A stretch of 64,000 bases of DNA from an uncultured Candidatus Saccharibacteria bacterium. Lineage in GTDB: Bacteria; Patescibacteriota; Saccharimonadia; Saccharimonadales; Saccharimonadaceae. A program made the translations under genes and the position numbers. Shown in pieces: positions 40,974-44,041 of this stretch (its first letter is position 1; each line of letters starts with the position of its first letter). The stretch spans positions 560-64,559 of the forward strand of contig CAZFYB010000005.1 in NCBI GenBank assembly GCA_964523145.1. The letters are read 5' to 3'. Below the pieces are notes generated by a model. It was not told where the DNA came from and made no database searches. It saw nothing but the letters and a program-made list of their open reading frames with translations.

Positions 40974-41183
40974 CTACTGATTTTCAGTTTGAGTACTGGA
41001 TTCTTCTTCGGCACCGGTGTGGTACTCTTCAAGAATATGTGTCCATGCCGCTTGCAGCTCTTCGCCGTCAGGGTCATTCGTTAAGCTAATAGTGTCATCG
41101 TGCTTAAAGTCATCAAGCTCGCTAATACTGCCATCATCTTGTGGGTCAATTGGTTGGAGTTCTAAATATTCGTATACAGACAT
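40974..41183 (-). CDS. Small acidic hypothetical protein
   Basis: 69-aa D/E-rich ORF co-oriented with neighbours. Confidence 0.55.
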   Translation of the reverse strand: MSVYEYLELQPIDPQDDGSISELDDFKHDDTISLTNDPDGEELQAAWTHILEEYHTGAEEESSTQTENQ

Positions 41184-41270
41184 AATTTTTGTGTTTAACT
41201 TTTACTTTTTCTATTTAAGCATAATCACCATTAAAAGTCAATGGCTTGGTGTTTTCCAGGAAAAGGAAAA

Positions 41271-41292
41271 CCCCGGCTATTGCTAGCCGGGG
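41271..41292 (-). terminator. Terminator of the J-domain operon
   Basis: ccccggcta / tagccgggg inverted repeat; on the minus strand followed by ttttcctttt. Confidence 0.75.
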
Positions 41293-41304
41293 GATCCCCT
41301 ACTT

Positions 41305-42171
41305 CTAAGTCGGAGAATTCTGCGCCAATGGCGCGGAACTCTGAATCGAACCGATACGAGCCAGATGGCCACTGTGCCTGTTTCGCACAACAACCTCCGA
41401 TCCTTGGCTGAGTCGCGGTGTGAGCTTTGGCAAATACCAAGCTTCAGACGGTGCCGTCCAAGCGGGTGCTTGGGTGATCCCCGAAAACCCTTCCCCGAGC
41501 TCCGAAAATTCACCCTCCACAACCACGTCATCCTGTAGCCCTTCGTGACGAAGTGCGCCAGAAGGCAAGAAGCCAACCACGTCTACCCTCCCCATCATCT
41601 GGGGATTATGGATATAACGAGTCAACTTCAGCGACATATTCAAGAACATCTCGCTCCAGCGGCCGTTGCGATACGATGGTGCCTCGGATTGCTCCGGAAG
41701 CATATCGATCTCGCCAGCTGCAAGGCTCAAGAATGCCCTATCGTGCGTCACAACATCCAGAATGGTCCGCGAGGACTCGAACTGGAGGATGAAACTGGTC
41801 GGTACCTTGATGCCGAGGACTTGAAACTGGTCGATGTTCTCGAGCAGCGACAGTAGCGCCGACAGGCTGTCGCGTTCGCGCCTTCGTTCCAGCTCTGCCT
41901 GAACGTTCCGCTGAAAACGGGCACGATCAGACTGCTTGGTTTGGCGTTCGATGGCCAAAGCCAATCCATCCCGATGCCGCAAATCTTGTATGGCATCAGT
42001 GAATGGTTGTAGCATCTCGGCGGCTTCAGGATTCACATCGGGGTGATACAGCCGTGCGATCGCCCGATAGTACCCTTCGGCAAGCTTCAGGATGTTGTCC
42101 GAAGAACCGGCGGAGCGTTCGCGCTCTACCAGTTCTGCGGGGACCCCGAGAACTTCGAGAGAACTTTGCAT
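41305..42171 (-). CDS. N-terminal J-domain (HPD) protein with unknown C-terminal region
   Basis: SLEVLGV...YYRAIARLYHPDVNP...DAIQDL J-domain pattern; start moved to ATG 42171 (AAGGAG SD, 1 nt after upstream TGA). Confidence 0.75.
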   Translation of the reverse strand: MQSSLEVLGVPAELVERERSAGSSDNILKLAEGYYRAIARLYHPDVNPEAAEMLQPFTDAIQDLRHRDGLALAIERQTKQSDRARFQRNVQAELERRRERDSLSALLSLLENIDQFQVLGIKVPTSFILQFESSRTILDVVTHDRAFLSLAAGEIDMLPEQSEAPSYRNGRWSEMFLNMSLKLTRYIHNPQMMGRVDVVGFLPSGALRHEGLQDDVVVEGEFSELGEGFSGITQAPAWTAPSEAWYLPKLTPRLSQGSEVVVRNRHSGHLARIGSIQSSAPLAQNSPT

Positions 42172-42172
42172 A

Positions 42173-42682
42173 TCACTCCTTTCGTTCGTCAAGCGCCTGT
42201 AGTAGGTGTTCAACGCTGTCGATGTCGGTTGCGGCCGAAATGCCGCCGACTTTCTTGATCAGTCCATCGAGCGACTCGATGCTCGTGACGTCCTGCATGG
42301 TTTCGGCGTCCGCGTACACGCGCAAGAACTCGAGCAGACCCACGACATAATCGCGACTCAGCTCGTTATCGGTGCGGGTACGAACACCAACTTCATACAG
42401 GTACTCAACCACGAGCGAAACTTCGCCGACCGAGAACTCCTCAAGGAGCTCCTCAATCCACGAAACCGATTCGCCGTGAAAACTGACCAACCATACTAAC
42501 CCACCCACGATGGGTTCGGTGTTGAGTTCGGGCAGAAAGGCAACCAGATCGCCGATGGCGCGCTGGTCTTTGGTAGCAAGAGTATTAGCTTCGTATCGCT
42601 TCAACTCTTTCGGATCTCCCATGATACGCACGAGAGCGCCACCAGCTCTAAGAGCCGGGGCAGATAGTACGAGTTCGTTCAT
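42173..42682 (-). CDS. Hypothetical helical protein, first gene of J-domain operon
   Basis: 169 aa, AGGAG SD, coupled to the J-domain gene. Confidence 0.75.
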   Translation of the reverse strand: MNELVLSAPALRAGGALVRIMGDPKELKRYEANTLATKDQRAIGDLVAFLPELNTEPIVGGLVWLVSFHGESVSWIEELLEEFSVGEVSLVVEYLYEVGVRTRTDNELSRDYVVGLLEFLRVYADAETMQDVTSIESLDGLIKKVGGISAATDIDSVEHLLQALDERKE

Positions 42683-42769
42683 TATTCTCCTAAGATGTAG
42701 GGTGCTACGGAGGTACGAGAAGCAAAAAGTGGCAATAATGCCTACTCCAAGTCCTCAACGTTCGCTATA

Positions 42770-42850
42770 ATTATATCAGTTACCTACCAAAGTGTCAACT
42801 CGCTTAAGGTGTTAGCGCACTATTGACTTTTTGATTGAAAGTGATACAAT
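42770..42850. promoter_or_regulatory. Back-to-back sigma70 promoters
   Basis: Minus: TTGACA(42798-93)-17-TATAAT(42775-70). Plus: TTGACT(42823-28)-16-TACAAT(42845-50). Confidence 0.7.
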
Positions 42851-42904
42851 ACTCCCCAACTTGTCTGCAAGCCTGCAGCTGAGTCGTTCCCCCAAGGAGA
42901 GAAA

Positions 42905-43228
42905 ATGTCAGGTCCCACCAACTGGAAAGTCACCAACAAGGTGATCGAGTTCGATGACATCGTCAACCAGGTCAAGGCCACGCGGCGCCTTCTGCCCAAC
43001 AAAAGCTTCGTCGAGATGCTCGAGGAGGGCTTCGCCGAGATGCTCGAGGAGTACGCGCCCAGCATGATCGGCGCGCAGGCCATTGATGCCGATGCCGGCA
43101 TCACCCTCAAGGTGAAGCGCGGGCACAAGCTCTGGACGGAGTCACTCGCCCAGAAGATCGAGGAGACCGTTCGGTCGTACCGCACATCCAGCCGGGAGCC
43201 CGTTCGCTTCCAGGTGCAGATGGCCTGA
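42905..43228 (+). CDS. Hypothetical protein with high-GC3 codon usage
   Basis: 107 aa, AAGGAG SD, own promoter and terminator; codons end mostly in G/C. Confidence 0.8.
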   Translation: MSGPTNWKVTNKVIEFDDIVNQVKATRRLLPNKSFVEMLEEGFAEMLEEYAPSMIGAQAIDADAGITLKVKRGHKLWTESLAQKIEETVRSYRTSSREPVRFQVQMA

Positions 43229-43270
43229 GGTTCCTCTCCTCAAAAACTACCGGCAGTAAATGTCGGCCGC

Positions 43271-43328
43271 CCCTCGGGGATCCACCACAGCGCTAGAGCG
43301 TTACTGGGTGGGTCCTCGAGGGGTTTTT
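43271..43328 (+). terminator. Long hairpin terminator
   Basis: ccctcggggatccacc / ggtgggtcctcgaggg 16-bp stem (G-U pairs) followed by ttttt. Confidence 0.7.
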
Positions 43329-43369
43329 CATTTTTTATAATGAAGTTTAATTTCTGATAAAATAACAAT

Positions 43370-44041
43370 ATGAATCAAAATATCTCACGAATCATCACAG
43401 GACTTATCATATTACTTATTGGAGTTGGCGCACTACTCAGCGCAACCAATGTATTCCCTTTTTGGAGCCTTTTAAGTACATGGTGGCCATTACTTATCGT
43501 TGCGGCAGGTCTATTAGTATTGGCCGGTAATCCAAAAAGCAACTTTTTATGGGGTATTGCCCTTATCGTTATTGGTGGACTGTTGCAGTTTAACCAGCTC
43601 GATGTGCTTAGTTTTAATGCATTCTCACTTATCTGGCCAATCGCAATTATTGCCGTTGGACTTTCTGTCTTATGGAACGGGAAAGGCCGCTTTGGTAAAC
43701 AAGACCTTTCAAAAGATGTTGATGATATCTCAGTCATTTTTAGTGGCAGCGAAGTAGTGAATAAATCAAAAAATTATAACGGTGGTAAAATTACCGCAAT
43801 TTTCGGGGGAACCTCTATAGATTTGCGTGACGCTGTGATTAATAAAGAAGCAACTCTTGATATTTTCACCCTTTGCGGAGGTGTTGAACTCCGTGTCCCA
43901 CGAGAATGGCGCGTTGTTTCGAAGGTAACCCCAATTCTAGGGGGAGTTGAAAACAAGGCCCTCGGCAGTGAAGACCACAAAGGACCTGTTTTACTTATCA
44001 CTGGTATTGCTGCACTTGGTGGCGTTGAAGTTAAGACTTAG
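43370..44041 (+). CDS. LiaF/LiaI-like membrane protein (DUF5668 TMs + DUF2154-like beta domain)
   Basis: 4 TMs with WWPLLIV / IWPIAII; C-terminal AIFGGTSIDLR, GGVELRVP.EW.V. Confidence 0.8.
   Translation: MNQNISRIITGLIILLIGVGALLSATNVFPFWSLLSTWWPLLIVAAGLLVLAGNPKSNFLWGIALIVIGGLLQFNQLDVLSFNAFSLIWPIAIIAVGLSVLWNGKGRFGKQDLSKDVDDISVIFSGSEVVNKSKNYNGGKITAIFGGTSIDLRDAVINKEATLDIFTLCGGVELRVPREWRVVSKVTPILGGVENKALGSEDHKGPVLLITGIAALGGVEVKT

Follow-up and report, generated by a model that had tools for sequence, protein, structure and literature searches.

The stretch of DNA considered here (the window) comprises 64,000 nucleotides of an uncultured Candidatus Saccharibacteria bacterium (GCA_964523145.1, contig CAZFYB010000005.1, positions 560 to 64,559 of the forward strand); the source genome amounts to 797 kb in 16 contigs and is 99.3% complete. 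Between ileS and the gene of a zincin-like peptidase (Zincin_1), the window harbours a small accessory cassette. Two of its genes, here called A and B, form an operon on the minus strand, and a third one, C, is placed divergently. As judged from homology, B carries a genuine, but divergent J-domain. The locus may provide a class-C J-protein that brings the single DnaK of the cell to a dedicated, co-expressed partner, and the chances that this interpretation is correct appear to us about even.

The A-B operon is preceded by a promoter at 42798..42770 (minus strand), TTGACA-17 nt-TATAAT with an extended -10 TG, which agrees with the sigma-70 consensus in 12 of 12 positions. Gene A (42173..42682, minus strand) encodes 169 amino acids (aa), its ATG at 42682 being preceded by an AGGAG Shine-Dalgarno sequence. 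Gene B (41305..42171, minus strand) encodes 288 aa from an ATG at 42171. The junction between the two reads GAAAGGAGTGATATG and contains a Shine-Dalgarno sequence still within A; the TGA stop codon follows, and a single T separates it from the ATG with which B begins. Behind B, an intrinsic terminator is found at 41292..41271 (minus strand), with a 9-bp stem, 7 GC pairs therein, and a T-run. The consensus promoter, the TGA-T-ATG coupling and the terminator had all been claimed in the original prediction and are indeed read in the sequence; its span of 41271-42798 extends, by the coordinates of these elements, exactly from terminator to promoter. Both A and B are real genes, with existing homologues and ratios of nonsynonymous to synonymous substitutions (dN/dS) of 0.19-0.21.

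The description of the locus as a self-contained two-gene operon, however, covers it only in part. A third, divergently transcribed gene, not listed in the original prediction, is often part of the unit as well and is kept beside A-B in three lineages. This gene C (42905..43228, plus strand, 107 aa) has a promoter of its own at 42823..42850 (plus strand), TTGACT-16 nt-TACAAT with TG, which matches the consensus in 10 of 12 positions. The promoters of A and C share one AT-rich spacer of 222 bp, from which they point in divergent directions. C is kept and divergently placed in the clade of the window and in the genomes G010 and G389, and is absent from the cassettes of G297 and G185. It is a candidate for a regulator or a third subunit.

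The J-domain of B extends over residues 1-68 (41968..42171, minus strand) and is built from a helix I motif (SLEVLGVP), an inserted helix of about 12 residues, helix II, the HPD motif and helix III. The HPD is intact, as had been claimed; it corresponds to residues 43-45 and is encoded by CAC CCC GAT at 42045..42037 (minus strand). A profile search through 1.84 billion representative proteins yielded 122 matches, about 50 of them full-length relatives of B (275-320 aa), and the resulting family alignment (A4) contains 50 sequences with a mean column identity of 24%. When compared to the PDB, the family profile gave 35 matches, which were J-domains without exception (best E 7e-7); PDB 3UCS is among the PDB matches of the B profile searches. 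Alignment of the family to the genome's own DnaJ by hhalign covers residues 1-69 with a probability of 87% and an E of 3.6e-6. Helix I (LGV), the HPD and helix III pair with their counterparts there, and 12 residues are inserted between helices I and II. Taken individually, 23 of the 50 members match PF00226, and no other Pfam family is recurrent among them.

The HPD is the best-conserved feature of the entire family: the histidine is found in 49/50 members, the proline in 44/50 and the aspartate in 50/50. Two basic positions of helix II are occupied by K or R in 39/50 and 42/50 members, respectively, and helix III and an L.D motif are also kept. That, in a family as divergent as this one, the HPD and the K/R positions of helix II are most conserved is a signature of selection for contact with Hsp70. 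With the homology and the strong selection on the HPD, the original view of the second gene as that of a J-domain protein is substantiated. In the AlphaFold2 model of B, a short helix I is followed by the inserted helix (12-21), helix II (24-41) and helix III (48-64). The HPD is thus modelled in the loop between the helices 24-41 and 48-64, with a predicted local distance difference test score (pLDDT) of about 75 locally and of 62.7 overall. The motif also aligns with the HPD of the genome's own DnaJ. Both would be compatible with the expected place of the motif between helices II and III, although the Foldseek search with this model returned no J-domain among its top 50 matches.

The remainder of B is of a different nature. 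Residues 69-113 (41833..41967, minus strand) form a single helix in the AlphaFold2 model, possibly a coiled coil or stalk; at the C-terminal end the pLDDT is low. Residues from about 119 to 288 (41308..41817, minus strand) make up a beta-rich domain, modelled from about 125 to 281, with near-invariant W172, G200, W238 and W245 and the motif W..P..AW[FY]LP.L. Neither a Foldseek search against the PDB nor Pfam revealed relatives of this domain. PF01556 and PF00684 have no match in any of the 50 family members, and B has none to the NCBIfam entry 'curved DNA-binding protein'. Since its similarity to DnaJ ends at residue 69, B is by architecture a class-C J-protein.

Protein A is acidic (isoelectric point, pI, 4.4; net charge -16), soluble and free of cysteine, and, like B, it lacks a signal peptide and transmembrane segments. 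AlphaFold2 models it as a bundle of 11 helices (pLDDT 80; predicted template modelling score, pTM, 0.79). Its conserved motifs are GGAL.R, LNTE, FHGE and YLYE.G.R. No match to A was obtained in Pfam, NCBIfam, PADLOC, PHROGs, by profile in the PDB sequences, or by Foldseek in the folds of the PDB and BFVD. Of the original description of A as an ORFan of 169 aa led by a Shine-Dalgarno sequence, the latter and the length hold. An ORFan, however, it is not: an A family exists, and its members are met only directly upstream of B-type genes.

This linkage is a persistent one. In all 7 lineages with readable context, i.e., the window clade, G010, G389, G297, G185, G320 and the P0035 contig (L055), B is immediately preceded by an A-type gene, even though the identity of B goes down to about 23%. 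The window clade is represented by 3 database contigs and 13 JGI metagenome contigs, all of them syntenic between ileS and Zincin_1. In G010, which belongs to the same genus, the cassette resides in a different context (LemA/TPM). B of the P0035 contig is 23% identical to window B, and the gene upstream of it matches the A profile at E 7e-29. Across the lineages A and B are mostly start/stop-coupled. The co-occurrence elsewhere that the original prediction anticipated for the two genes was found in every related locus examined. A search by word index, based on the 50-sequence alignment, yielded no members beyond those already known, and GTDB scans returned none, or G389 again. The B family has been met only in Patescibacteria, mainly in Saccharibacteria.

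A wider superfamily of J-proteins shares the N-terminal residues up to about 110, i.e., the J-domain with the insertion and the long helix, and in part also the C-terminal end. It was read in other Saccharimonadia and other classes of Patescibacteria (L017-L023, L026, L028, L029). Each of these J-proteins is preceded by an unannotated open reading frame (ORF) of 156-251 aa, and the pairs are often far richer in GC than their flanks, e.g., 0.61-0.63 versus 0.36-0.45 in L020. A co-variation of the C-terminal type of B with the type of partner was considered as evidence for binding. The idea was dropped, since the distant L026 and L028 share the C-terminal domain.

How could such a pair work? The locus would be an accessory three-gene cassette with C divergent, followed by A-B, in a genome that contains one DnaK and one canonical DnaJ. 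The J-domain of B, with its intact HPD, would bind DnaK and trigger ATP hydrolysis, and the long helix and the Trp-rich C-terminal beta domain would supply specificity. A, being made in step with B from one mRNA, would be the dedicated partner of B. It might be a client passed on to DnaK by B, or else an adaptor or modulator bound to B; AtcC with AtcJ and CbpM with CbpA are precedents. B would accordingly bring DnaK to A or to something that A holds, and the pair would place the remodelling activity of DnaK on one particular target. The J-domain, the HPD, the single DnaK and the A-B linkage all speak for the DnaK-recruiting module that had been proposed at the outset; the recruitment itself, like the binding of A to B, the identity of the client and the downstream roles, is what we infer. 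The module had also been called undescribed, and indeed, in the papers searched, we found no published account of such a pair in Saccharibacteria or Patescibacteria.

Several points weigh against recruitment of DnaK to a dedicated partner. Window B scores only 16.6 bits with Pfam DnaJ (PF00226), which is under the cut-off of 27.8. The AlphaFold2 model of B is of only moderate confidence (mean pLDDT 62.7, about 75 across the J-domain), and no J-domain structure is among its top 50 Foldseek matches. The insertion of about 12 residues between helices I and II of the J-domain is unusual, and the J-domain of window B is acidic (pI 4.8). A and B of the P0035 contig are separated by a terminator and a promoter. 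A conflict system, too, would be compatible with a cassette that evolves fast, is patchily distributed and looks foreign in composition. Finally, the binding of A to B and the action of B on DnaK are predictions.

The J-like domain might even have ceased to work with DnaK, the pair thus being DnaK-independent and the HPD being kept for structural reasons. The score of window B below the Pfam cut-off, the insertion between helices I and II and the acidic J-domain could all be interpreted this way, as could the few family members in which HSD, HTD or SSD replaces the HPD. The family as a whole, however, retains helix III and the L.D motif, and its most conserved residues, despite all divergence, are precisely the HPD and the K/R positions of helix II. 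We consider a loss of the interplay with DnaK very unlikely.

The cassette is accessory. A full-length B is present in 2/40 species genomes of the genus and in 4-5/401 genomes of the class (about 1%). In other classes, one full-length relative (G725, re-scored) was detected in about 370 genomes within a 401-genome sample of the phylum. In G010, G389, G297 and G185 the cassette occupies different chromosomal sites. The interval between ileS and Zincin_1, which in the window corresponds to 41078-44037, was also read in relatives (L044-L053, L031-L042). In 10 congeners, it is empty in 6, contains a LiaF-like gene alone in 1 and unrelated ORFs in 3. The cassette-bearing clade has extra GC-rich cargo 3' of B, including camelysin/TasA-like and signal-peptidase-like genes. 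By its contents in the congeners and in the clade, the interval is variable and mixed in its cargo, and is not a defence island. The place of the LiaF-like gene itself varies: it flanks the cassette on one side in the window and on the other in L006, L035 and L041.

Some further genes near the cassette may be mentioned here. The camelysin/TasA-like gene (Peptidase_M73, GC content at third codon positions, GC3, 0.94) and the signal-peptidase-like gene (Peptidase_S26) are located at L035:7067-7666 and L035:8690-9229, and also occur in L037-L040; together they resemble a fibre cassette of the TasA-SipW type. An acidic ORF of 69 aa (40974-41183, minus strand, MSVYEYLELQPIDPQDDG...) is found just upstream of the Zincin_1 ORF, which it overlaps. 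The same place is taken by such an ORF in congeners (L044:8746-8970, L048:8802-9038, L052:841-1065). The ORF may encode a small protein, so far unannotated, that is paired with the zincin-like peptidase, and the true start of the listed 171-aa Zincin_1 ORF probably lies further downstream.

Within the window clade, the cassette diverges fast. Between the window and its clade-mates the protein identity is 84% for IleRS, 72-75% for Zincin_1, 45-51% for B, 40-46% for A and 25-35% for C. An identity of IleRS of 99-100% is associated with one of B of 93-96%, 93% with 72-73%, 88-91% with 52-62%, and 84-86% with 45-51%. The identity of B thus drops monotonically with that of IleRS, which implies vertical descent with fast divergence inside the clade. 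Allelic replacement by horizontal transfer within the clade was ruled out, because the divergence of B is monotonic with that of ileS. The dN/dS, as measured in the pair L035/L036, is 0.21 for A and 0.19 for B, and 0.04 for ileS and Zincin_1. These values indicate purifying selection that is about five times more relaxed than in the flanks.

The cassette also differs in base composition. From about 41200 to 43300 the GC content is 0.55-0.61 versus 0.41-0.46 in the AT-rich flanks, just as the original prediction had it. The excess is located at the synonymous sites of the cassette genes: GC3 is 0.627 in A, 0.611 in B and 0.879 in C, the genome mean being 0.402 (standard deviation 0.071, 730 ORFs). 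All three genes range within the top 2-3% of the ORFs of the genome by GC3, and C is the highest of all. In every cassette copy measured (window 41305-43228 and L001, L004, L006, L008, L014, L015, L035-L042, L054, L055) GC3 stays high in A, B and C (0.52-0.88), also where the proteins are only 40% identical. The synonymous divergence (dS) of the cassette is, in the closest genome pairs, 2-10 times below that of ileS (0.11 and 0.24 versus 0.56; 0.01 and 0.05 versus 0.14). The persistent GC3 together with the low dS might be due to selection acting at synonymous sites, to recent exchange, or to biased gene conversion, the site being one prone to recombination in this last case. A conserved antisense gene as the source of the high GC3 was rejected: long antisense ORFs are not kept between relatives, and they are to be expected in GC3-rich DNA.

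The genome contains about 8 more clusters of GC3-rich ORFs, with a GC3 of 0.55-0.77 versus the mean of 0.40 (C2:4.5-7.6 kb, C2:42.5-50 kb, C2:99-107 kb, C4:6-9 kb, C1:92-93 kb, C1:133-136 kb, C1:151.9-152.7 kb, C9:8.6-10.3 kb). They encode ThyX, a JmjC-domain protein, an LCP (LytR_cpsA_psr) protein, a surface protein of 569 aa and several unknowns. In view of these other GC3-rich ORFs, the GC-rich composition marks a wider accessory gene pool in the genome, and the clusters are probably a laterally acquired one.

Distribution, divergence and composition bring to mind a conflict system of the anti-phage, abortive infection or toxin-antitoxin-chaperone-like kind. Either A or the C-terminal domain of B would then possess a toxic or sensing activity, and the recruitment of DnaK by B would serve to control it. 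An accessory and patchy cassette, found at different chromosomal sites in the four genomes named, would fit such a system. So would a variable site which most congeners leave empty, a divergence about 5 times faster than that of the flanks, a strong promoter and a terminator of its own, and a composition atypical for the genome. Yet A, B and C have no match in PADLOC-DB 2.0 at E <= 0.1, A and B have none in PHROGs, and Pfam and NCBIfam disclose no toxin or antitoxin domain. The sizes of A and B (169 and 288 aa) are atypical for type II toxin-antitoxin or toxin-antitoxin-chaperone (TAC) modules. The neighbours are housekeeping genes, and the other cargo of the site is TasA/camelysin-like plus signal-peptidase-like or unknown, none of it being defence. 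A dN/dS of about 0.2 gives overall no sign of positive selection, and the cassette is inherited vertically in the window clade, its divergence tracking that of ileS. A conflict system is, in our opinion, unlikely.

The toxin, defence module or host-manipulating pair envisaged in the original prediction finds no support in these database searches, nor in phages or viral contigs (see below). Nor do the unrelated, housekeeping-type cargo of the variable site in relatives and the plain purifying selection on A and B speak for these suggestions. A related proposal, which we regard as rather improbable, is a DnaK-dependent module by which episymbiotic Saccharibacteria would engage in conflict or host interaction, and in which the J-domain of B would arm or disarm A or the Trp-rich domain upon infection or host contact. 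If it were true, the persistently high GC3 and the low synonymous divergence would stem from a gene pool apart, with exchange or selection taking place there, and not from the ordinary evolution of the chromosome.

The pair might also be the remnant of a phage or mobile element, its J-protein serving to reprogramme the chaperone or heat-shock network of the host. There is a precedent for phage-encoded J-proteins: Rki of phage RB43 acts on sigma-32 (PMC3486835). The GC-rich composition and the mobility of the cassette between sites would be in line with such an origin. However, a tblastn search through 50,697 phage records with A and B revealed no relatives, and neither did four scans of IMG/VR with the family alignment and three relatives. 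A has no structural match in BFVD, and near none of the cassette loci read are there an integrase, repeats or phage genes. The long-term vertical retention under purifying selection does not suit a remnant either, and we see only a slim chance for it.

Membership of the heat-shock regulon was considered, too, and rejected: there is no CIRCE (the HrcA operator) at the cassette, although CIRCE is used at the chaperone genes of the genome. Perfect or near-perfect CIRCE sites are found at C1:49726, C3:14186, C6:13917, C6:17104 and C6:17151, three of them around dnaK/dnaJ, and the small genome has thus kept the classical heat-shock control by HrcA and CIRCE. In G297 (L015:1092-2907), A-B immediately precedes groES-groEL in the same orientation. 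The two pairs are set apart by a terminator and by the CIRCE of groES itself, and are therefore separate transcription units.

Why should a J-protein of this kind deserve attention? J-domain proteins set where Hsp70 works, and only a handful of specialised bacterial ones have known targets (HscB, DjlA, CbpA/CbpM, AtcJ). Here a J-domain is paired with two folds for which no known counterpart was found, and this in ultra-small symbionts with one DnaK and a minimal machinery of proteostasis. The identity of A would reveal a new process controlled by DnaK in organisms that are hard to study. Being small, soluble and free of cysteines, the A-B pair is easily testable in E. coli.

Among the known systems, the Atc operon of Shewanella oneidensis is one of the two that come closest in function. 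According to the reports on it (PMC6715715; bioRxiv 10.64898/2026.09.07.749886), AtcJ associates with AtcC and recruits DnaK, whereby AtcB is modulated; the operon comprises four genes, and AtcJ is a short J-protein with a C-terminal PX7W tail of about 21 residues, the Trp-containing motif of which matters for partner binding. The cassette resembles it in being a small dedicated operon that combines a specialised J-protein with what would be an operon-encoded partner, and the C-terminal domain of B also has near-invariant Trp residues. The differences, however, are substantial. B has 288 aa with a long helix and a beta domain of about 170 residues in place of the 21-residue tail of AtcJ. The cassette consists of two genes plus a divergent third one, not four, belongs to another phylum, and is accessory and atypical in GC. 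By the features described for Atc, the cassette is not a member of that system; for A and C, no sequence relationship to an annotated family was detected.

The other is CbpA-CbpM of E. coli, likewise encoded by a two-gene operon, the small partner CbpM acting directly on the J-protein CbpA. The latter, however, is a class-B-like paralogue of DnaJ with DnaJ C-terminal domains, binds DNA, and its gene precedes cbpM. The cassette shares with this system a J-protein and a small partner encoded in the same operon. In contrast to CbpA, B has no similarity to DnaJ_C; A lies upstream of B and matches neither Pfam nor NCBIfam, so that the pair is not of the CbpA-CbpM type.

It is with the class C (type III) J-proteins, such as DjlA, HscB and DjlB/DjlC (PMC10410713), that B finds its place. 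They, too, combine a J-domain with an unrelated specificity domain, and B, having neither a G/F region nor a zinc finger nor DnaJ C-terminal domains, belongs to this class. It differs from the members mentioned by the extra helix between helices I and II of its J-domain. The class-C J-protein is thus of a known kind; new are the C-terminal domain of B and its obligate partner.

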